Notes: a model not told the origin generated them from the sequence alone. Shown: positions 38,706 through 61,575, counted from the stretch's first letter. The stretch: 64,000 bases of DNA from a virus (IMGVR_UViG_3300036715_002535:47837-111836), one strand, 5' to 3'. Made by a program: numbers and translations.

Positions 38706-41531
38706 TTACAGTGCGCAGATAAACTCCAATCCCTCCGGTACAAGATCGAAGCCCAAGATCAAGCGCTGCCCAGAGGGATTGACACAGAAGTTCGAAGCAC
38801 CCAAGCTGAATACTGATCCATCCAACCTAGCACGCTGCTTGATATCCGTGACCTTCCCGCCTACATAGAGAAAGCCCTTGTGTGCCCGGTAAATCGTCTT
38901 GATGCCTACCTTGTGACCCAAGAGCCTGTCCTTCCAACCTACCGCTACCCTAACCGTACTCTTCTTAAGCAATTCCTCGTAGGTATGCACGAGGATCCTA
39001 CCATTGTCGAATTGTACCACTAACTTATCCGTGGGCTCCACGCAAACTGCCGTTTTAAGTGGCACCCTACTGAAAGCCCTCCTACCATTAGGACCTTCAT
39101 CCTGCAACCGGCATATCAGCGTGCCATCGCTCCCCAACCCCACCACCACCTGATCCCTATCTGGCACAACTAATAAACACTCCTGCTGCTCCCGCTCATA
39201 CCCTAACCGCTTACCTGGCGCATATACCGATACCGCTTCCATATACCCACCAGAGTCCACGAATGAAAAATAATCCTTACATTCCCCTACTAACTTACCC
39301 GTGAACCCTCTTCCTCGTATAGGCTGATCCTGAGATAACTCCCATCCCTTATCTGTCACCACTACCCAATTACTCCTGGACTCTAACTTCTTGAATTGTG
39401 GCAAATCACTCTTATCGCAATACTTGGTTGTACGTGGTAGGTCCGCTGCCTTATAAAACTCTACTAACTCATCCACCTGCTTCTTCAATTCAAATAGAGG
39501 AGAGGTCCCTTTCCAATAGATATACTTCTCCCTACTGCTTGCGTACTTGAGCTTCAACTGCTCCTCGTTCAATTTCAAGATCTGCGATACCTTCAATGAC
39601 AAAGCATAATCTACCATCCGCGGCACGATGAACTTCGCTAATTCTTTTTTCACCAACTCCAAGGTTTCAGAACTAAGCGCCTTCAAGAACTTGGCGTGGT
39701 TCTGAATGATCTTGATCTGCGTATCCAACTCTAACGACTCTTGTTCATAGGTGGCTACGAGATCCGTAATACGTAGATCCCATAGTCCCAACCTATGCTG
39801 TGTCCAATAAGAGAGAATGTCTACCAGCGAGCACATCTTGATTTCGAATGAGCTTTCTTCACCACTCCGTGAGGCATCCTCGTTCGATGCGCCTTTTCGT
39901 AAGGGTTTCTTAGACTCGGAGGGCACTACCACGTGGAACTGATAGCTCTCACGCTTGATCAGAGCAGGTAGGATCCTCGTGCTGAACAAACGTGGATCTT
40001 TCATCACTACCTGCACGCTGACCGCTTCCGTCGAAAAGTCCGCGAGCTCGATCATCTCTTTCTCTACGAGATCAGCCCACGCAGAGCTCAGAGTCGAATA
40101 GGTGACTAGGGGTGCGAACCCAGTGATGGTCACCTTAGACTGCTTGAGATCGAGCTCATATGCGCAGCAGTACGCTAGAGAGCCGACCCCAGTGCGGTAT
40201 ATCTCGGCTATCTCGTCGTGCCCACTCAAGCAATAACACTTATTTTCGAGCTGAGGCCCCTCCATCAACGCAAAATAACTTTTTTCAGTTTTACTTATCT
40301 CACGGGAGTGGTTCGGGGAAACTTCTAAATTCCCTGGAACCCCATCTTCCACATCAACAACACCGGAAACCGGTGTGGAGGGATCATTATCGGGGGTAGG
40401 GTTACCCTTAGTCTTCTTACCACCAATAGGGGACTTAGAGTCATCCAGGGTGCTAATGCGTTCCTTTGCGAGGATCTTTTCGTACTGATCATTGATATAG
40501 GCTTGGGATGTTTTGGCTACGGACAGGATATGATGGGAGGGGATACTTCCAGAGAAGCCCATGGAGATGCCAGAGTAGCCATTGACAAGGATCAGGGGGA
40601 GGAGGGAGGAGAGGACTTCAGGTTCCTTTTCTTTGCCATCAAAGTTGGGTACAAAGTGGAGATATTTTTTATCCAGGAAGTGGGAGAAGCCCAGGTCAGT
40701 GATGCCGGATTCGGTATAGCGATAGGCAGCTGGGGGGTGGCCTTTGATAGATCCATAGTTGCCCACGCTTTGGATAAGGGGGTATTTGATAGTCCAGGGG
40801 GTGGCAAGGGCAACGAGGGCTTCGTATGCGGAGGAGTTATGGGTTACGAGGAGTTGGTCACCGCTTACGATGAGGGCATTTTCATAGTCATTGACGGTAA
40901 AGTCATACATAGGTTCAGGGGAGGGGAGTTCTTCAATTTGGATTGACTTGATATAGAGGGGATGGGGGAGGGAGGATTTATCTAGGACAAGTTTATCGGA
41001 TTGAAGGAGGGAGGGGTAGTGTTGGATAACTTGGTAGGGTTTCAGGTCTTCAGCTTTTATCCAGCGTTGATTTACAAAGAAGGGGTGATTAGAGGTGCAG
41101 CGTACAGTTTGCCCATTACTTAGGTGCAGGTTGTAGATTTTGGTTGAGTATTGACCAATGCGGAAGGAGTGGGCAATAGAGGGAACTAAGCGACCTTCTT
41201 TGTTGAGGGATAGGACTTCAAGTTGGGGGGTATGGGATTCGATGAGTTGGGGGATAGTTTTGGGGATTCCATCCAGGCTGAACAGTTTGGTGTTACCCTC
41301 GAGGCAATCTCCATGGGGATTGTAGCTTCCGATTACATGTCCAATGATCTTCGCGCACTTGAGGGAGCCACGATCTGGTTTGAGGCCCATTTCGTAGGCG
41401 GACCAGAGGATGCGTCGTTGTACAGGTTTGAGGCCATCACGGATATCGGGGAAGGCGCGATTGAGGGAGATATAGTGGCCATACTCCAGGAGGTTGGTTT
41501 TGATCAGTTGTTCAGCGACTACGTGGGACAT
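38706..41531 (-). CDS. gyrA: Type IIA topoisomerase subunit A (GyrA/ParC-like) with intein
   Basis: RAFPDIRDGLKPVQRRIL, PHGD, GNYGS...PAAYRYTE, VPNFDG..EPEVL..LLP.ILVNG.SGI.MG. Confidence 0.9.
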   Translation of the reverse strand: MSHVVAEQLIKTNLLEYGHYISLNRAFPDIRDGLKPVQRRILWSAYEMGLKPDRGSLKCAKIIGHVIGSYNPHGDCLEGNTKLFSLDGIPKTIPQLIESHTPQLEVLSLNKEGRLVPSIAHSFRIGQYSTKIYNLHLSNGQTVRCTSNHPFFVNQRWIKAEDLKPYQVIQHYPSLLQSDKLVLDKSSLPHPLYIKSIQIEELPSPEPMYDFTVNDYENALIVSGDQLLVTHNSSAYEALVALATPWTIKYPLIQSVGNYGSIKGHPPAAYRYTESGITDLGFSHFLDKKYLHFVPNFDGKEKEPEVLSSLLPLILVNGYSGISMGFSGSIPSHHILSVAKTSQAYINDQYEKILAKERISTLDDSKSPIGGKKTKGNPTPDNDPSTPVSGVVDVEDGVPGNLEVSPNHSREISKTEKSYFALMEGPQLENKCYCLSGHDEIAEIYRTGVGSLAYCCAYELDLKQSKVTITGFAPLVTYSTLSSAWADLVEKEMIELADFSTEAVSVQVVMKDPRLFSTRILPALIKRESYQFHVVVPSESKKPLRKGASNEDASRSGEESSFEIKMCSLVDILSYWTQHRLGLWDLRITDLVATYEQESLELDTQIKIIQNHAKFLKALSSETLELVKKELAKFIVPRMVDYALSLKVSQILKLNEEQLKLKYASSREKYIYWKGTSPLFELKKQVDELVEFYKAADLPRTTKYCDKSDLPQFKKLESRSNWVVVTDKGWELSQDQPIRGRGFTGKLVGECKDYFSFVDSGGYMEAVSVYAPGKRLGYEREQQECLLVVPDRDQVVVGLGSDGTLICRLQDEGPNGRRAFSRVPLKTAVCVEPTDKLVVQFDNGRILVHTYEELLKKSTVRVAVGWKDRLLGHKVGIKTIYRAHKGFLYVGGKVTDIKQRARLDGSVFSLGASNFCVNPSGQRLILGFDLVPEGLEFICAL
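40836..41306 (-). mobile_element. Mini-intein (157 aa, no homing endonuclease) in gyrA
   Basis: PHGD|CLEGNT...CTSNHPF...MYDFTV...VTHN|SSAY. Confidence 0.9.
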
Positions 41532-41617
41532 GGGGGGACCTCAGGGGTATAACCGGAGTGGAGAGGGTTTTCGCCTTGAACGAATAAAGAGAGGAGAAGG
41601 TAGACCTTGGATCGTTT

Positions 41618-41656
41618 GGAGTAACCCCTTTGAAAGTGGGGATGCCTGGTTATAAT
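41618..41656. promoter_or_regulatory. Class B promoter/cassette header, variant
   Basis: ggagtaacccctttgaaagtgggg-atgcct-ggttataat. Confidence 0.7.
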
Positions 41657-41673
41657 ATGGGATGGAGGGTTCG

Positions 41674-42159
41674 ATGACCAAGATGCGTATTCAGGCAGCA
41701 GTAGTCAAGACCAAAACATTCAACTACAAGGATGAGGAACAGGAGGCAAAGGCTTGGGCTACGAAGATGAAGGAAAAGGGTAACGTTGTCTTCGAGGATG
41801 ACAAGGGTTCCGATACCTACTGCTTGTACGCTGCACCTTCCAAGAAGGATATTCAGGATTGGTGCGAGGAGCAGGAGCAGGAGGTCAAGTTAGTTTCTTT
41901 CACGGCTAGGGTCCAGGTTGCCTCCAACACCTCCATCTGGGCAATCTTACGGCAGGATGCTTTCGGGCAGGGGGATGCCATTACTCTAGTAACTGCGTTG
42001 AACGAGCAGGAAGCATTTTCAATCTACGCTATTGAGAGTGCAGGAAGCATAGCGCCCTCAAACGTTTCTGAGGAACAAAACAGGGCGGTGCTGGAAGAAT
42101 TTTATGGGGACTACAAGGATGGTTACTACAAAGTTCTACCAACGGAAATGATTGGGTAG
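41674..42159 (+). CDS. KLRIxA-leader protein (MTKMRIQA)
   Basis: Leader motif, SD GGAGG, second motif-like ARVQVA mid-protein. Confidence 0.7.
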   Translation: MTKMRIQAAVVKTKTFNYKDEEQEAKAWATKMKEKGNVVFEDDKGSDTYCLYAAPSKKDIQDWCEEQEQEVKLVSFTARVQVASNTSIWAILRQDAFGQGDAITLVTALNEQEAFSIYAIESAGSIAPSNVSEEQNRAVLEEFYGDYKDGYYKVLPTEMIG

Positions 42160-42538
42160 TCGGCTCGTTTGGAGTATATGCTAGAGGGTTTCGCCCAAGA
42201 AGAACCTACCTTCATCGCGGGAGAGGTTCAGGAAGAACTTCTGGCCATCTTTTCGTTGGAAGCCAAGGAGGTAGCGTGCTTCGCCGGGGGTTGGTCAGTA
42301 GGGACCTGGAGTAGCTTCCGATCAAGGGATACGTGGATCAGTTCGAAGGGTCCGCCGTTCATGTTTAGTTCCTTTGTTCAGGGTGCGATCAGTTGGGTCC
42401 TAGGCTTTCAGTGCCCTTGCCAGGTTTGACGACGAGCTTGGATTCCAGCCACGCATCAAACTTTGGGAATCGTTCGCATAACTTCTCAAGAATCCAGATG
42501 AGGGGTGTTGCGAAGTTCTCTTCCATGGGGACCTCGTG

Positions 42539-42592
42539 GGGAGTAACCCTTTTGAAAGTGGGGTTACAATTACTTATGGTGAAGCTACGTAT
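42539..42592 (+). repeat. 54-bp promoter-plus-leader cassette header, copy 1
   Basis: gggagtaacccttttgaaagtggggttacaattacttATGgtgaagctacgtat, identical to 43740-43793. Confidence 0.95.
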
Positions 42593-43028
42593 TGCATCCC
42601 AAGGTGAGATTAATAGGATCATGTGGACCCTCGGTCATCTGCGGAAGGCAGTGAGGGGGCTTCACAAGTACGAGTCGTCTGTCAATGTGGAGGGGAAGGT
42701 AGCTCTCAAGGCAGCGATGGGAGTTTTGTTGGAAGTAATCAAGCAGGAAGAGGGTAAGATCGAGAAATTAAAGTTCGAGGGTGAAGAACATCCTCGAACC
42801 TGGAGCATTCGGAAAACGGTAAAGAGTCTGAGTTGGACCCTTCGGAAGTTGAAGTTTGCTTCCAACGATCTACAGATCTATCTGGGTCCACACCTTCTGG
42901 GTAAGACCACGATAGGTAAGGATGCCATTCTGCGTGCGAAGGCCATCATAGATCAAGCTGTGAATGAGATGCAGGAGAAGGTTAAGGCTCTCGAGGGTGA
43001 GCTGTGGAGAGAAGTCTTTCCTGATTAG
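42576..43028 (+). CDS. KLRIxA-leader protein (MVKLRIAS), two helical repeats
   Basis: Leader motif; WTL..LRKA / WTLRKL internal repeat. Confidence 0.7.
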   Translation: MVKLRIASQGEINRIMWTLGHLRKAVRGLHKYESSVNVEGKVALKAAMGVLLEVIKQEEGKIEKLKFEGEEHPRTWSIRKTVKSLSWTLRKLKFASNDLQIYLGPHLLGKTTIGKDAILRAKAIIDQAVNEMQEKVKALEGELWREVFPD

Positions 43029-43076
43029 TAGGTGCAGGTGTAGCACGAGAACAGTTGGTAATCGTTCTTCAGTAGC

Positions 43077-43116
43077 TGAAAGTGGGGTTACTATTACTTA
43101 TGGTGAAGCTACGTAT
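43077..43116 (+). repeat. Partial cassette header
   Basis: tgaaagtggggttactattacttATGgtgaagctacgtat. Confidence 0.9.
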
Positions 43117-43666
43117 TCAAGCAAGTGTCAAGGCGAACATGTGGGATGATGCTTATCACCCAAGTAAGCTTGGTCCCTCTTTGACCATCAACCCTTGGCA
43201 GGAAGATCAGTTCTGGGTGGCGCCAAAGGATCCAGGTATTCCCGAGGAAACGAAGCAGCATCTGAGGGAGTGGTTGCAATACAACAACAAGAGTTTGACA
43301 GGCGAGGATCTCAATTTCTTGATGCGTAAGTACTCTTACTCCGGGACGATGTTTCGAGGGGTGGGGTTTCAGACCATGGAAGAGATGGAGGAGTTTCTAT
43401 CCACGTTAGGGAATGAGAGGCATCCTACCTCGTGGTCCAAGTCTTTTGAGGTAGCCAAGGAGTTCGCTTCGGAGGGGCAGACTCAATCCTCCCTTCCCAA
43501 TCATTGGTTGGTTCTGAAGTATAAGGGCAAGGCATTCGACTTGCACAAAATGCATTTGAAGCTCTCTCCACCCAGTCAGAAGAAGAAAGATCGTGGGGTG
43601 GTGAGGGAGCAGGAACTAGTGATCCCTGCAGGATCCTACAGCTTCGAAGTAGTGGATAAGGGTTAG
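43100..43666 (+). CDS. KLRIxA-leader protein; putative R-S-E ADP-ribosyltransferase
   Basis: MVKLRIQA; MFRG, PTSWSKSFEVAKEFA, REQELVI motifs. Confidence 0.7.
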   Translation: MVKLRIQASVKANMWDDAYHPSKLGPSLTINPWQEDQFWVAPKDPGIPEETKQHLREWLQYNNKSLTGEDLNFLMRKYSYSGTMFRGVGFQTMEEMEEFLSTLGNERHPTSWSKSFEVAKEFASEGQTQSSLPNHWLVLKYKGKAFDLHKMHLKLSPPSQKKKDRGVVREQELVIPAGSYSFEVVDKG

Positions 43667-43739
43667 TCCTGCGTGCAGGTAGGGCAATATATTGCAGCCA
43701 GGGGTGGAGCCGCATGTGGTGCAGGCGCCTTGGAGGGTT

Positions 43740-43793
43740 GGGAGTAACCCTTTTGAAAGTGGGGTTACAATTACTTATGGTGAAGCTACGTAT
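43740..43793 (+). repeat. 54-bp promoter-plus-leader cassette header, copy 2
   Basis: Identical to 42539-42592. Confidence 0.95.
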
Positions 43794-44367
43794 CAAAGCC
43801 GGTCTATCTAATAGGGTCTACCATTTCACAACTCTTTCCTCGAAAGCATCTCAATTAGTTGTGGTGGATGTTCAGCCAGTACATCGTGGGTTCATTCACT
43901 TTGATGTTCCTAGTTTGATGAAGAAGTTCGAGGACTATGGACGGGTGCTCATTGTCTATAATGGGGCAGAGTTAGGTTACGAGGATAGTCCAAATACCAT
44001 TCAAGAGTGGTATTTGGAGGAGGGTATGAACGAAGAGGTTCATTTAGAGTTTAAAGATAAGGCTTACGGTTTTCTTCGTGGGGCAATGGATACTGGAGTT
44101 GCTGACGAGAACATCGTTGGAGCAATCAAGGTAATGCTCGAAGAAGACTTATCAGATAGCAGGGAATTATCTACCGAGATGCAAGAGCAGTTTGGTTTGA
44201 GTGAAGATACAGCTATCAGCATTCCGGATGATCTGATAGATGCCTTGAAGGATTTCAATGGGGCAGATATTTGCGGTGGTGGAGATAACGATTGTTTAAG
44301 AGAAGTGGAGTTGCTAGCTGAAGGTGCTGGCTTAAGATTCAATCGTTTGTATCGATTTGTTTATTAA
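43777..44367 (+). CDS. KLRIxA-leader protein; isochorismatase/cysteine-hydrolase-like
   Basis: MVKLRIKA; LVVVDVQP, K..GF, ICGGGDNDCL. Confidence 0.55.
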   Translation: MVKLRIKAGLSNRVYHFTTLSSKASQLVVVDVQPVHRGFIHFDVPSLMKKFEDYGRVLIVYNGAELGYEDSPNTIQEWYLEEGMNEEVHLEFKDKAYGFLRGAMDTGVADENIVGAIKVMLEEDLSDSRELSTEMQEQFGLSEDTAISIPDDLIDALKDFNGADICGGGDNDCLREVELLAEGAGLRFNRLYRFVY

Positions 44368-45776
44368 ATACGCGGTTCCTCGTGCCCTTTACGATTGGGG
44401 TGGTACGAATCCCACCGAGCCAGCTTCTTGATATGCATCTGCGAGCATAGCAACAGCTTTTTCAATTTTCTCTTTGAGTGAAGGGATTGCTTCTACAAGA
44501 GGGTGGCTAGTTACATGTTCCTCAATCGTGCAAATGATAACGTGTAGACGATCCACAACCTCGTGGACATGACCGTCATCTAGACCTTCAGGCAGGGGAG
44601 GGAAGGGTGGCATCATCTGAGTCCTACAATAACTGCGTATAAGTATCGGGGTTCTGGATCATAGTAGGTCGTGCTCTTGGCAATACTCTAGAGCAGCGAA
44701 TACGGGGCCAGTGATCCACGCTTGTTCAATTTCCTGGGAGGTCCATACTCTTCCAGCATTGTCTGGTTTGTCTCCCAGGTTCTTCATGGCTTCGCAGATA
44801 GGGCAATAGTCTCCAGTCAGGAGATAGGGTCCACCCAGTTCCACAGCTCGATTGGTGATCATCCAATGGCAAGACATCAGGGGATCGTAGGGTGCCTCAC
44901 CTCCTTTCAGTTCTGTCTGTAGGCGTGCTGCAGCTTCGCTACCACCTTGGGCTACGAGGTGTGACATACCGGTGGTTTCGATTGACTGGCGTAGGGCGGT
45001 CCAATGATATTCACAGATCTTCATGTGTTGATCCTTTAATCGTTGCTGGAGGACGATGATCGCGACTAGAGCTTCTCGATAGCATCACGAAGATCAGTTA
45101 CAGGATTCGAAATTTCAGTATTCTTGATCCCCTCGGTTTCAATCTTCATGCCAATGCTGATGGCCAGAGCCGCAAGTCCAAACCACCCTTCAGGGGATGT
45201 GGGTTGAACTGGGTAAATGCGTTGTTGCCAGAAGTCTGGTGTTCCACTATCAAGGATATGCAGTGGAACGTATTTTTCTAGGCTTCGAATGCAGTCTTGC
45301 AAGCCAAGGGTTACATCCTCAGTTTGATAGTCTCCAAAGAAGATATTGTAGGTACTTCCAAAGCCTATCTTTCGACCATCGAAGATCTGTCGGTACAACC
45401 TCGTCCAAGAATCGTGGGAGTACTGATTGTCCGGCATGCCTGGAATGATCAACTGTTCTACCAAGTTCGCAGGGAAACCCAGTCCCAGAAGAATCGTTTT
45501 GGCTAGCAGGTCCGGGTACTGGGTTACCAGAACGCATTCATCGCGTTCGAACCTTACTTCGTACCCATTGCCTACCTTCTTGATGTGAACGAATCGAAAC
45601 ACTTCATCGTTTGGTAGTCCGTGGATTCCACATTTTGGCGGAACCCAGCTTTCGCTGCGCTTCATAGTAACTCCATACGATAGTTTAAGGGTCCGTCGTG
45701 TCAGACCTGAATAGTTAACCCTACGTTCCTTGTTCTAGCAGGAGGGTTCTAATGGGTACCTCACGGTTGTAGGGAT

Positions 45777-45800
45777 TAACCTTGAAAGAGGGGTTACAAT
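45777..45800. promoter_or_regulatory. Class B motif taaccttgaaagaggggttacaat
   Basis: Same TAACC...GGTTACAAT architecture, in a divergent gap. Confidence 0.75.
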
Positions 45801-45823
45801 AGATAGATAGATGGAGGATTCCA

Positions 45824-46414
45824 ATGGGTAAGCTCAATTGTAGCAGGGAAGAAGGACCGGGTGTAAAGAAGCTTCGTATCCGTGCTGGTGTGCCTAAGAA
45901 GGCGGCACTCGTGGGCATGCCAGTCCCAGGCTGGTTCATCTTCTACAATCTGGGAAGCGGTAACTGGGAGGTCGAGGCAGCGCCCAATCCAAATACTGCG
46001 AGCCGGGAAGAACTGCAGAAGGTGATGGAAGACTTCAAGGAGTTTGGGTACAATGACAATATCAAACGGCACGGTCATAGCCGTACCTTCTATGTAGAGA
46101 TTACACCAGAGATGGTTCAGGATTGGGCTTCGGAAGGTGTGGAGAGCTGGGAAGATGATATGGTCACAGATGCCATTCAAGGACTTCCAAACACGGATAT
46201 TCGAAGAATTTTAAAGCAGAAGGGCTCCAAGAAGGCATCTGAGCTCAGGATTGTATCTGGGAAGAAGGACCAGCCCAAGAAGCGTGAAACCTTTGAGGAA
46301 GCAGTCGAGCGCGGGTACAAGGAATCCAAAGAGGTATTCGAGAAGCTTCAAAAGAAGCCGGTCCTGGTATCCGATGGGTCTACTACTTCGGACTTGGGAT
46401 CTCAGCAATCCTAA
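45824..46414 (+). CDS. KLRIxA-leader protein (MGKL...KKLRIRA)
   Basis: Leader interrupted by a 13-codon insertion; plus-strand island. Confidence 0.7.
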   Translation: MGKLNCSREEGPGVKKLRIRAGVPKKAALVGMPVPGWFIFYNLGSGNWEVEAAPNPNTASREELQKVMEDFKEFGYNDNIKRHGHSRTFYVEITPEMVQDWASEGVESWEDDMVTDAIQGLPNTDIRRILKQKGSKKASELRIVSGKKDQPKKRETFEEAVERGYKESKEVFEKLQKKPVLVSDGSTTSDLGSQQS

Positions 46415-48448
46415 AGAATGCGCAAATAAGACTTGCCACGGAAAGAGGTGGAATCCTGTAGCCAGGAAGGTCCTACGATGATCAGGTCTGTGCGGTTCAG
46501 GGTCTTGGCTAGTTGCTTGGGGTACTCGAGGTCATGGTTGGGCCACACATAGATGGCACGTTGTGGGGCTTTAAGCATTTGTTTTGTGGTACGGCCTGTT
46601 TGGTTCATGGTGGATCTGCGTAGAAGATCTTGCGTATGGTGCAGTTACCAAAGTCGAGGGTGCCTTCGATGAAGGTGGGTTGTCCTTCGAGGGCCACGAT
46701 CAAGCAGATCTTGCCTTCACGGTAGGTGGTCCACTGTTGCAGCCTCAGGAATCGTTTAGGGTGTAGGAGATAGAAATGGCAATGGATCTGAGCCTTGAGG
46801 ATGTGGAGTAGTCTTCTCATCTTACCATTCATTTTAGTGATTTCGTGATGAAAGTCTGGGTTCGAGATCATGATTCGCTCCGAGGGAAGTAACCCACTAA
46901 AGATCCTGAAAGAGACTTCTATCCCTCACATCGCTAAGGGGGCTTCGCGTGGTGGGTTCGTTGTAGCTGGGTTCCTTCTGATCCGTGATGGTCAGATGGG
47001 CAGGGTTGTCGCCTGTTATACCCCAAGGGCCTTCTTTCAGGACAGCGAACGCAGGCCACGTGCTATTTGAGCCAGATCGAATCCAGATCGCAGTATCTCC
47101 AGGGAGAGGGGAGTTCTGAAGTAATTCGATCAAACGGTCTTTGGTCAGTACAGGGCGGTCACTCATTCGTCCAGCTTCCTTTTTAAGGGTGTCCCAGTTC
47201 TTCACTAGATTCACCAGATGGTTGGCTTTCGCCTTTTGCTGTTCGGGACTACCATAGGTTGCGCAGCACATGCATCCACCTGACAGGAGGGCGTTACGGC
47301 AGGTGCAGTTCTAGTGGCAGGGCTGGTCAGCGAGGAGGCAGGGACAGGTCATATTTTTCCTCCCTTCGGGATCACTGCAGAGCAGGGTATTGGGCGCTCT
47401 CCATGACTCGATCAAACACTTTCCAGGCTAGACCAGGGTTCTTCTCACCTTCGAGATAGCGCTTGGCGTAGCCCAGGGCAGTACCTTTGTCTATTCTGCG
47501 TGAGGACCATCTGACTAGGGCTTCTGCGAGGGTATCTGCTGCGAGGTTCTCTGCTGGGGTCATAGTTTCACCGGAGCAGCCTTTTGATCCTCTTCGGATC
47601 CCCAAGCGGTACGCTTTACCGTTACTTCCCAGGAGCCAGCACGAGGTCCCAGCTCTAATGGAAAGACTGAGAGGGTAGCTTCGGGGTTGAGGTTCTTCAC
47701 GAAGGAAACCAGAAAGTCCTTCCACTTCTGGGCGCACTCCGCGTCCATTTCAGCAACTCGTTTCAGGAAGAACTCTGGTAGCTGAGTGTTCATGTTGGCT
47801 CCTAGTAATGATAGAGGTTCCCTTGCTGGGGGGATTCTGCCTACGTGTTTGGGTTCACTTGCTTCGAAGTTCATTTTCTAGCTTCTCGACACGTTCATGG
47901 CACTGGCGAGGGACATATCGATGAACGTCAGTGCCAGAGTGGTTCCTCAATCATCCTGCCAGTTCTTCTGGAAGGCATCGAGCTCCTCCTTGGACTTGGC
48001 TACATATTCCTGAATTGTCATGTTAGTTCCAATACACTAATTGAGGTGAATTCTTGACACCACAGTAAGGGCATCGAGGTTTTCCAAAGAAAGCGAATCG
48101 ATGGAAGTCTTTGTCACATCTTCCGCAACGAAGACCCCAGGTTCGGAACCATGAGATGGTCACGATCGTTGGGTAGTAGAGTTTCGTGGGTAACGCCTTA
48201 CCATCCATCTCCATCAATCCCTCTTGATAGAAAATATAACGTTTCTTTCTTTGATTGCTTCGATAGATTTTAGGATGTCCTCGTCCGAAGGGGCGGTCTT
48301 GGGGAGGTACTCCGGTCGATAAACCTTCAGATCGAATGCTTCAAGAGCCGAATGAATGATCCGAGCGATGGTGGTGCCACCATGACTACCTGGGCCTGAA
48401 ATCGTGATGGTCACGTGGATGGGTTCGGACATGTGGATACCTCCCATT

Positions 48449-48476
48449 GGTAACCTTCGATGAAGAGGGTTACAAT
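48449..48476. promoter_or_regulatory. Class B motif ggtaaccttcgatgaagagggttacaat
   Basis: Between divergent genes. Confidence 0.75.
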
Positions 48477-48494
48477 AGAATATTGGAGCAATTC

Positions 48495-48728
48495 ATGGTC
48501 AAGCTTCGTATTCAGGCAAACGTACCTGGATTCATGGAAGATGATGCGATCATCCGTGATTTTGTGGGTACTGGCTTGAACGATCGTATGTTATATGAGC
48601 ACATCGTACAGCAGACTGCGAGCCATCAGATTGCCAGGTACGTGGACAAACGCCTGAAGGAGTTGAAAGAGACCCTTGGAGAAGAAGGACTTTGGAACCG
48701 TCATCTACAATTGAAAGGGACGAAATGA
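48495..48728 (+). CDS. KLRIxA-leader protein (MVKLRIQA)
   Basis: Leader motif, SD GGAG. Confidence 0.7.
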   Translation: MVKLRIQANVPGFMEDDAIIRDFVGTGLNDRMLYEHIVQQTASHQIARYVDKRLKELKETLGEEGLWNRHLQLKGTK

Positions 48729-48961
48729 CCAAGCATAAGATCACTTCTGGTAAGAAAGCGGAGTTGTTCAACGAAGGCAACTGGCAGGATCATCTAGTGC
48801 AGTTCGTCGAGTCCTGGGCACACGATCAGATCAATGCTGACGGTACAGGTCCTACGTGGAAGATGGAAATCGAAAGGGCTAAGCAGGAGCTCTTGGAGAA
48901 GCTTGAAACCACCTGCACGGAAATAGAAGAGAACCTTCACAATGGCGAGTACTACGTTTAA
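48725..48961 (+). CDS. Acidic protein with weak leader (MTKHKITSGKKA)
   Basis: Coupled ATGA overlap within the leader-gene operon. Confidence 0.6.
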   Translation: MTKHKITSGKKAELFNEGNWQDHLVQFVESWAHDQINADGTGPTWKMEIERAKQELLEKLETTCTEIEENLHNGEYYV

Positions 48962-48972
48962 GGAGAAAGACC

Positions 48973-49158
48973 ATGGGTAAGCTACGTATCCGAGCCACCT
49001 TCAAGGCATTGAAGTTGCCCAAACGACTTCTGGAAGAACAGAAGAAGATGGAGAAGGACAACTCCGACATGCATTGGGTGCAGGATAAGATGAAGAACGA
49101 TACAACTCTGGAACAGCAGGAAGAAGCTACTCCAGGGGACAACGAAGGAACAGATTGA
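48973..49158 (+). CDS. KLRIxA-leader protein (MGKLRIRA)
   Basis: Leader motif, SD AAGGAG. Confidence 0.65.
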   Translation: MGKLRIRATFKALKLPKRLLEEQKKMEKDNSDMHWVQDKMKNDTTLEQQEEATPGDNEGTD

Positions 49159-49850
49159 TGAAACTCCACATCAAAGCATCTCTCAAGCGTGCAGTTCTCA
49201 CGATCACCACGCTTGAGGATGTGCTGATGGCGCGTCAGTTCATCACAGAACGGGATGGTCAGTTCCAGGAAGGTGGAGCGATCATTGCACCTGAAATCAT
49301 CAAGCAGATGCAGGATCAAGGTTTGATCCACTTGCGTTGGCAGGGGAATGATTACTCTAACTGGGAGCTTACTCCTGAGGGATTGAAGGCCAAGGAAGCT
49401 CTGACCAAGAAAGTGAAGTACAAGAAAGGTGATGAGATCTGGTACTTCCAGCCCACCCAATTTCTAGATATGCCACGTGTACCCAATTCCTTTTCAGGTA
49501 TCTACGTCGCTTGCATCCTCTGTACAGTCAAGAGTTGCGGTATGAAGCAGATGACCCTTGAGCGCAAGGTGGGTGGCAAGATGATGCAATACTTCATCAA
49601 GCCAGAACTTTACAAGAAATGGGCGGTACCTGCTACTCAGTTTCATTCCGAAGCTGAAGTAGTTGCCTATGGGACAAAGCTCAGTGCAGATGAACTAGAT
49701 CGTGTGATAGAGTGGGACGAATCCCGTTGGCGAAATGCTCAGAAGAAGTACGCAGAAGATCCCAAGGGTCTAGCGTTTGAACAGAAGGTTTACGATGATC
49801 ATAGGACACTCCTTGATCTGGTGAAGCCCTTCGCAAGGATCGTAGACTAA
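49155..49850 (+). CDS. KLRIxA-leader protein (MKLHIKA)
   Basis: Leader motif. Confidence 0.7.
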   Translation: MMKLHIKASLKRAVLTITTLEDVLMARQFITERDGQFQEGGAIIAPEIIKQMQDQGLIHLRWQGNDYSNWELTPEGLKAKEALTKKVKYKKGDEIWYFQPTQFLDMPRVPNSFSGIYVACILCTVKSCGMKQMTLERKVGGKMMQYFIKPELYKKWAVPATQFHSEAEVVAYGTKLSADELDRVIEWDESRWRNAQKKYAEDPKGLAFEQKVYDDHRTLLDLVKPFARIVD

Positions 49851-61266: not shown

Positions 61267-61575
61267 ATGGCTAAGCTAAAGATCATCGCAAGAATCCTAG
61301 AGCCTTCAGACTATCTCTGGCACGCTTACGATTCGGATCAACCGATGTCTCTGACAACACGCAATGGTCACAAGACCATTTCGATGCGGAAGGGAACCAA
61401 ATACGGAATTAGACCATCAACTAGTGGTTCTGCAATCCGAATGATAACGGAGATGTATGGACCAACCATCGTCTTTACCCTCACGATGGATGAGAAGCGT
61501 GCCCTTCTAGCTAAGTCCGTTCCCGCTCCCAAAGGGACTCTTCAGCAGGTGGCCCGGGTTCGAGCAGGTAAATGA
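61267..61575 (+). CDS. KLRIxA-leader protein (MAKLKIIA)
   Basis: Leader motif; upstream TATAATTG. Confidence 0.6.
   Translation: MAKLKIIARILEPSDYLWHAYDSDQPMSLTTRNGHKTISMRKGTKYGIRPSTSGSAIRMITEMYGPTIVFTLTMDEKRALLAKSVPAPKGTLQQVARVRAGK

Follow-up and report, generated by a model that had tools for sequence, protein, structure and literature searches.

Between positions 41618 and 44367 of a 64,000-nt stretch of viral DNA, hereafter the window, lies an array of small genes whose plus-strand members are headed by copies of the same short unit. This unit, here called the header, consists of a palindrome, a -10-like box that overlaps the right arm of the palindrome, and a translation start together with the first codons of the gene that follows, which encode a short N-terminal tag. 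The window comprises bases 47837-111836 of an IMG/VR virus record of 111,836 bp (IMGVR_UViG_3300036715_002535), and positions refer to the window unless they are given as genome positions. Evident in the sequence are the repeat itself, two classes of promoter-like element in the contig, a link between the tag and one of these classes, mutually unrelated payload genes behind the headers, and structural variants of the locus in relatives.

Headers and genes of the array

Header A (42536-42592, plus strand) presents the full anatomy of the unit. Its arms, GTAACCC (42543-42549) and GGGTTAC (42561-42567), enclose an 11-nt loop; the -10-like box TACAAT (42565-42570) overlaps the right arm and is followed by TTACT and then by the ATG at 42576, with tag codons running through 42592. 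Header C (43737-43793, plus strand) has arms at 43744-43750 and 43762-43768, TACAAT at 43766-43771 and its ATG at 43777. It is 98% identical to header A over 57 nt, a span slightly longer than the identical 54-bp unit that the initial annotation had placed at 42539-42592 and 43740-43793. The partial copy noticed at 43077 is header B (43077-43116, plus strand), in which the right-hand 40 nt read as in A and C from TGAAAG on, with one mismatch; the left arm is decayed, the box reads TACTAT (43089-43094) and the ATG lies at 43100. An origin of header B by a breakpoint at the centre of the palindrome was rejected, since an alignment of six copies (alignment A1) shows a decayed left arm with the upstream flank conserved.

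The same alignment bears out the units near 41618, 45777 and 48449, proposed earlier as diverged copies, as diverged homologues of A, B and C, and extends the homology to about 25 nt upstream of the palindrome. The diverged header at 41602-41673 (plus strand) reads GTAACCCC-TTTGAAAGT-GGGG, with an extra GGTTATAAT box and GGAGGG in the leader before the ATG. Those at 45776-45823 and 48449-48494 (both plus strand) read TTAACC-TTGAAAGAGG-GGTTACAAT, with GGAGG in the leader, and GGTAACCTTC-GATGAA-GAGGGTTACAAT, with GGAG in the leader, respectively. The 18-mer TGAAAGTGGGGTTACAAT occurs four times at up to three mismatches against an expectation of 0.05, and ATGGTGAAGCTACGTAT occurs seven times against 0.08. 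The header at 48448-48494 has a left arm that, on the minus strand, reads GGTTACCAAT and is followed by GGGAGG and the ATG of a divergent gene (48214-48447); this header could therefore serve both directions, as a bidirectional promoter.

Identity among A, B and C stops after ATG GTG AAG CTA CGT AT, inside codon 6, as had been observed from the outset. Up to that point the three are identical even at synonymous sites, and they are therefore taken as young copies, recently duplicated or homogenised. The header with its flanks is also present in gene calls of other contigs (P0013, P0016, P0017, P0001 and P0023). A misassembly of this single contig, an artefact that the initial annotation had allowed for, therefore does not explain the repeat.

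The first plus-strand gene of the array (41674-42159) encodes a tagged orphan protein of 161 amino acids that begins MTKMRIQA; it is absent from the arrangement seen through the relative P0004, described below. Payload A (42576-43028, plus strand) is an orphan of 150 amino acids that begins MVKLRIAS and is known only from near-identical contigs. Payload B (43100-43666, plus strand; 188 amino acids) resembles R-S-E-type ADP-ribosyltransferases (ARTs) by its PHROG match, alignment A2 and its structural neighbours in the ESM Atlas. Payload C (43777-44367, plus strand; 196 amino acids) belongs to a phage protein family and has a Rossmann-like fold according to Atlas structure comparison. On the minus strand, a small open reading frame (ORF) of 44 amino acids (42228-42362) is a gene call on three contigs, and a small gene of 45 amino acids (42389-42526), divergent from header A, is conserved in relatives that differ only by T7A and V32I/L. 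Both minus-strand ORFs had been recognised earlier, the second with an end at 42527 that is off by one. The decayed-gene remnants suspected near 43030 and 43670 were not recovered: only antisense ORFs overlapping the plus-strand genes are found there, with no sign of decay.

Promoter-like classes and start geometry

The headers belong to a wider class of promoter-like site, class II, which is defined by GGTTAnAAT-type boxes and found at 13 intergenic sites across the contig. At these sites the -10-like TAnAAT is conserved as GGTTAnAAT, a left arm (TAACC) lies 12-18 nt from the -10 box, and no consistent -35 box is present. Since the arms are separated by anything between 6 and 12 nt, depending on the site, a hairpin is preferred over a -35 box as the role of the palindrome, and an operator for a dimer with fixed spacing is ruled out. 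The centroid fold of header A is an 8-bp hairpin, and the palindrome of 7-8 bp overlaps the -10 box. Class I consists of the palindrome CCCTTGAC-N9-10-GTCAAGGG-TATATT, whose left arm contains a consensus -35 box, and occurs at no fewer than 13 loci, at 2775, 4658, 6115, 9333, 10723, 16331, 22738, 26954, 35956 and 37034 in the window and at genome 32208-44690 to the left of it. Class I sites usually lie about 20 nt before a Shine-Dalgarno sequence and ATG. This is the classical layout of the promoter-early stem-loop (PeSL) cassettes of T4-type phages, which indicates that the present phage would use hairpin-promoter cassettes generally.

Only in headers A, B and C does the ATG lie 5 nt after the -10-like box with no Shine-Dalgarno sequence, an arrangement correctly described in the initial annotation. 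TTACT stands directly 5' of the ATG, and T-A occupies the predicted -1/+1 position. From this geometry we infer that the mRNAs of the three are probably leaderless. Diverged class II copies have the ATG 17-24 nt after the box, behind a leader with GGAGG. The close spacing is kept in relatives, where ...GLQLL-M-VKL can be read through in P0001 (94% identical), P0013, P0017 and P0023, and a 1-nt indel in the G-run upstream of the ATG in P0001 shows that the region 5' of the ATG is non-coding. Leaderless phage mRNAs include that of lambda cI from PRM and those of many middle and late genes of phiYS40, and headers A, B and C are like these in placing the start codon 5-6 nt after the -10 box, in lacking a Shine-Dalgarno sequence and in the T-A at the predicted start. 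They differ in that sister copies of the cassette use a normal GGAGG leader.

Several results weigh against the header as a hairpin promoter. The folding energy of the hairpin is no better than that of shuffled sequence (z -0.45 to -1.4), and promoter-like matches in the region are at chance level, with 9 found against 7.8 expected. In addition, a scan with the sigma-70 consensus does not report GTAACC...TACAAT in headers A and C and proposes TTGAAA-17-TATGGT instead. If this second element were the true promoter in headers A to C, transcripts would start in codon 4-5, the tag would be untranslated, and the proteins would be made from downstream ATGs (e.g. 42621 and 43139). The element matches nine of 12 consensus positions around a 17-nt spacer, and in-frame downstream ATGs with AGGA- or AAGG-like boxes are available; yet consensus matches in the region are at chance level, and payload C has no nearby downstream start. 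An untranslated tag is also hard to reconcile with tag codons that stay intact in relatives at 94-99% identity (P0016, P0020 and P0021), and with the occurrence of the same tag behind ordinary Shine-Dalgarno starts at 12 other genes. This alternative promoter is regarded as very improbable.

The N-terminal tag

ORFs behind class II boxes share a tag with the consensus (M)x?-K-L-[RH]-[IV]-x-A-x-hydrophobic. Among 236 crude gene calls, the pattern K[LIM][RHK][IV].[AS] with K at residue 2 or 3 is found at 15 starts; in all, 15-16 ORFs of the contig, about 7%, are counted as tag carriers. Internal matches to the pattern number two in 32,176 residues, one of which is the displaced tag of the protein encoded at 45824. 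A tagged ORF stands behind 10 of the 13 class II sites and behind none of the class I sites (Fisher p = 1e-4, on counts made by hand). Across copies, the tag is written with different codons: Leu with CTA, CTC, CTG or CTT, Ala with all four of its codons, and Arg with CGT, CGA or AGA. Because synonymous codons vary in this way, the tag is evidently selected at the protein level, on bodies that are otherwise unrelated. A translational operator acting at the RNA level was rejected as the source of tag conservation, since synonymous codons vary freely outside the young copies A, B and C.

Where K is the third residue, the position before it is without exception V, G, T or A, all of which allow the initiator Met to be cleaved off, and K would then be second in every mature protein. 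This is a hint that the tag is recognised by its free N-terminus. Other tagged genes either stand second or third in class II operons or have ordinary Shine-Dalgarno starts, and the tag is therefore independent of the leaderless arrangement. The shared folds of payloads B and C do not include the tag, with structural neighbours aligning from residue ~40 in B and from residue 17-22 in C. The isoelectric points (pI) of tagged proteins are mixed and no different from those of the remaining proteins, and charge was therefore rejected as their common property. None of the recognised structural proteins of the contig is tagged.

Beyond the array, a 196-amino-acid gene (45824-46414, plus strand) carries the tag VKKLRIRA at residues 14-21. 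The displacement is due to a 39-nt in-frame insert between ATGGGTAAGCT and TCGTATC, flanked by AAGCT repeats and kept in the relative P0026, and it offers a test, made by nature, of the need for an N-terminal position of the tag. An operon at 48495-49850 (plus strand) contains three tagged genes and one weakly tagged gene, at 48495-48728 (MVKLRIQA), 48725-48961 (MTKHKITS, the weak tag), 48973-49158 (MGKLRIRA) and 49158-49850 (MKLHIKA), all on the plus strand. To the left of the window, two adjacent tagged genes of 129 and 116 amino acids lie at genome 36100-36836 (L029:16100-16836); in the relative P0037 (six contigs, up to 34 kb) they are fused into a 237-amino-acid ORF, in which the second tag is internal. 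Two KMPT-N-like paralogues, at window 61267-61575 and genome 12357-12659, match each other at E 3e-17 and match Pfam at E 4e-5 and 4e-6, below the curated cut-off. The former starts with the tag MAKLKIIA and the latter with MKFKVV, outside the tag pattern, and the leads before their domains differ in length.

Payload proteins

The initial annotation read the array as a duplicated regulatory-plus-leader cassette placed before unrelated payloads, and the comparison of the payloads agrees with this. Their first 10-70 residues align weakly (BLAST, E 0.04 or worse), the bodies cannot be aligned beyond this N-terminal part, and the folds differ, being ART-like in B and Rossmann-like in C; on these grounds, an origin of the payloads as tandem paralogues was rejected. 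Across the contig, tagged bodies are likewise unrelated by BLAST, with the exception of the KMPT-N-like pair. The payloads have no Pfam match above the curated cut-off and weak PHROG matches or none, and in a search of the tagged proteins against Pfam and PHROGs the only signals were the ART hint in payload B and the KMPT-N-like domain.

Payload B matches phrog_832 (RNA polymerase ADP-ribosylase) at E 1e-5 and has no Pfam match. An exhaustive HMMER search identified seven more distant homologues, and alignment A2 combines payload B with four distant homologues and the close relative P0003. In payload B, R86 in FRG ([YF]-R-G), S-W-S at 110-113 and E-Q-E at 168-170 follow one another in R-S-E order; within alignment A2, R86, W112 and E170 are invariant, and S-W-S/T and [QE]-x-E are kept. 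The ESM Atlas holds a model of the exact protein, whose neighbours over residues 40-188 are ModB, ART and exotoxin-type ADP-ribosyltransferases at a template modelling (TM) score of ~0.56. Compared with PDB sequences, alignment A2 gave nothing meaningful. Taken together, the motifs and the model suggest that payload B is an R-S-E ADP-ribosyltransferase-like protein. Distant ART homologues at ~30% identity begin with the same kind of tag (MKLKLKAKV in P0006, MKLSLNAHIKKS in P0008), and two longer ART homologues are without it, so the tag is old, portable and separable from the domain. P0006 itself had no match in INPHARED.

Turning to payload C, its Atlas neighbours are phage hypothetical proteins with TM scores of 0.76-0.81 over residues 17/22-196, and its relatives P0001 and P0021 are 94% identical. 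Our own AlphaFold models, built from shallow alignments, reached predicted local distance difference test (pLDDT) values of 38 for payload B and 41 for payload C, and this is a point against the interpretation offered below.

Structural variants in relatives

Junctions in relatives were read from protein-level gene calls on related metagenome contigs. One case is P0023 (contig of 1,224 nt), a gene call that starts MGTSFGVTLLKVGLQLL-MVKLRIKAGLSNRVYHF, in which the upstream flank of header A is followed by the header and then by payload C. The flank of header A is read as MGTSFGV in P0023, where the F variant is one also seen in P0004, and as MGTSWGV in the contig studied. An exchange between headers A and C, with removal of 1,201 bp and both intervening genes, would be expected to yield just what is read in P0023. 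A second case is P0001, in which the header of payload C has an A-type left edge, GTGGGGAG.

Other relatives differ in the genes that they carry. The pieces of P0004, a spurious ORF on the plus strand (three contigs, up to 8 kb), map to 41557-41592, 42384-42557 and 43523-43663. The relative that it represents is without the header at 41618 and its gene, and also without the stretch from the loop of header A, between GTAACCCCTTTG and TATAAGG, to codon 141 of the ART-like gene. In P0002 and P0024 (contigs up to 45 kb), the header and tag with 26 residues of payload C are joined to a different body, which starts MRLRF, contains a DGHHR motif and has no homologue in the contig studied. In P0028, the counterpart of the 48973 protein, MKLWINA replaces MGKLRIRA, and the other 52 residues show only three changes. 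The payload set thus varies among relatives (P0002, P0004, P0023 and P0028), which makes the locus plastic and agrees with the variation anticipated in the initial annotation. Its further proposal, that breakpoints fall in the header, would hold for the A/C junction of P0023 and for the P0004 deletion that begins in the loop of header A. It does not hold for P0002 or for the other ends in P0004.

Those outside breakpoints, at codon 26 in P0002 and at ~41594/42383 and 43523 in P0004, count against the header as the site of exchange, as does the prospect that P0023 arose as a chimera when the 57-nt repeat was assembled. They lend weight to another account, in which the headers are identical only because a good promoter and start region was recently duplicated or gene-converted locally, and the variants are illegitimate deletions and assembly chimeras. 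Most mapped breakpoints indeed lie outside headers, the sole precise header-header junction is on a 1.2-kb contig, and only three copies are near-identical. Such an account must still explain the unrelated bodies behind identical headers, which require at least two joins at the 3' edge of the header because identity stops within codon 6. Nor does it readily accommodate the A-type left edge of header C in P0001, the changed tag on an unchanged body in P0028, or the deletion that starts in the loop of header A. A mere trace of duplication is therefore considered unlikely.

The source phage

CheckV completeness of the 112-kb record is ~56%, from which the whole genome would be roughly 200 kb. Among the proteins encoded on the contig are a large terminase, a portal, tail fibres and a CCA-adding enzyme. 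Since the portal shares ~30% identity with its counterparts in phiRSL1, Rhizobium phage RHEph12, virus Rctr197k and 200-kb Pseudomonas putida phages, the source is taken to be a fragment of an uncultivated jumbo myovirus outside the T4-type group. No relative at the DNA level was found among the INPHARED phages by blastn. The viral_contigs set gave no match when scanned with a GyrA-like protein of this contig or with P0002, and single chance matches only when scanned with a 17-nt header pattern. A pattern scan of metagenomes returned a chance match in AT-rich unrelated DNA (L031/L032).

The GyrA-like protein, which also resembles topoisomerase IV subunit A, has 941 amino acids and is encoded at window 38706-41531 (minus strand), just left of the header array. 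Its alignment with phage homologues falls into two separate pieces, covering only 44-57% of the protein, and it may contain an insertion or an extra domain. In the head module, class II boxes are present at genome 3055 and 6020, near the terminase and portal genes. At genome 6012-6026 (L028), a GGTTAGAAT box lies only 3 nt 5' of the ATG of a 139-amino-acid ORF, just upstream of the portal gene, and a tagged gene at genome 2684-3037 (minus strand) abuts the terminase gene.

Possible roles of the tag

One precedent for a portable N-terminal peptide is the capsid-targeting sequence of T4, found on the internal proteins IPI-III and on Alt, with diverse internal-protein genes across T-even phages (PMC3012670, PMC5694885). 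By analogy, the present tag could direct proteins into the prohead, where they might be trimmed after [IV]-x-A by a head protease and later injected with the DNA, as are IPI-III and Alt, and the array would then be a library of cargo. The likeness extends to a strictly N-terminal peptide of ~8-12 residues on unrelated, fast-changing small proteins, and to an Alt/ModB-like ADP-ribosyltransferase among the tagged set. The position of the tag outside folded domains and the class II boxes near the terminase and portal genes also speak for this reading. The peptides themselves are unlike: the tag is basic and strand-like, K-L-R-I-x-A, compared with MKTYQEFIAE in T4, and it contains neither the L/I-x-E cleavage motif nor a conserved Glu. 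About 7% of the ORFs are tagged, rather than a handful. The mixed pI of the tagged proteins and the untagged structural proteins also fit a capsid destination poorly, and the tag pattern, searched at the DNA level, is absent from four jumbo phages with related portals (phiRSL1, RHEph12, Rctr197k and vB_PpuM-SKa-4). No prohead protease, scaffold or capsid gene of T4 type or otherwise was identified in the ~56% fragment, portal neighbours included. Models of the S77 (PF03420) and S78 prohead proteases had no match either, a point against the explanation favoured below, but one of limited weight given the partial contig and, for S77, control genomes that were also missed. Capsid targeting is regarded as possible but doubtful.

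Alternatively, the tag may be read by a partner other than the capsid, such as a protease adaptor that recognises an N-terminal degron, a chaperone, a modifying enzyme or a docking partner, and the header would couple this signal to one expression class. That K always stands equally far from the mature N-terminus suggests recognition of a free end, and the alternating L-x-[IV]-x-A-x-hydrophobic pattern resembles an amphipathic edge strand. However, no candidate gene for such a partner was identified in the contig, another point against the explanation favoured below, and direct support for a non-capsid role is as little as for capsid targeting. It is considered about as probable as capsid targeting, possible but doubtful.

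A proposed PeSL-like cassette that reaches into the coding sequence

The nearest known counterparts of the header are the PeSL cassettes of T4-type phages (Arbiol et al. 2010, PMC2839356; Comeau et al. 2014, PMC4122927). Like PeSLs, the headers and their class I and class II relatives are short repeated intergenic cassettes with a promoter-like box and a stem-loop that may overlap the -10 element. They stand directly upstream of orphan genes in hyperplastic regions (class II at 13 sites, class I at 13 or more loci), and some of the indels or replacements by which close relatives differ, read here at the protein level, may be bounded by the cassette. Class I is closest in form, with its stem between a -35 and a -10 element (PMC2839356). 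The differences are that the present phage is not T4-type, that class II has no convincing -35 box, that three copies are without a Shine-Dalgarno leader, and that the repeat enters the coding sequence with the tag codons.

With moderate confidence, we favour the explanation that the array is built on a PeSL-like composite cassette that reaches into N-terminal signal codons, in a hyperplastic region of a phage that is not T4-type. On this explanation, the stretch from 41.6 to 44.4 kb would be a hyperplastic run of small orphan genes, with the plus-strand genes headed by the composite cassette. The cassette would act as a promoter and would comprise a palindrome able to form a hairpin, its 3' arm overlapping the GGTTAnAAT -10-like box, followed by a translation start. 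The tandem copies A, B and C would have lost the Shine-Dalgarno leader, which would bring the ATG to 5 nt after the -10 box. Their identical headers of 40-57 nt could then serve as portable homology and as a substrate for recombination, so that exchange between headers would delete or swap the genes that they flank. A gene placed behind a header would acquire its expression class and its N-terminal tag together. Ordinary illegitimate deletions would also act on the region.

A bolder form of the same proposal is a modular 'express-and-address' header used by a lineage of jumbo phages, in which a hairpin promoter of one temporal class is joined directly, and in the youngest copies without a leader, to the codons of a sorting tag. 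A single homologous exchange would then install, remove or swap cargo and set its timing and destination at once, the destination would most plausibly be the capsid for injection, and the phage would maintain a cassette library of effectors that includes the ADP-ribosyltransferase. In this full form the proposal is distinctly unlikely.

Implications

In this cassette one repeat unites regulatory element and peptide tag, with the tag tied to one promoter-like class. The PeSL idea would thereby be carried past the T4-type phages and into coding sequence. The three apparently leaderless copies, lying beside sisters with Shine-Dalgarno leaders, form a test set for leaderless initiation in phage, although practical value is limited for now since the phage is uncultivated. 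Should the header serve both as a substrate of recombination and as the carrier of an N-terminal signal, it would explain how small accessory genes of large phages can turn over with their expression and routing kept. One class of accessory or effector protein in uncultivated phages would then also be recognisable by sequence alone.

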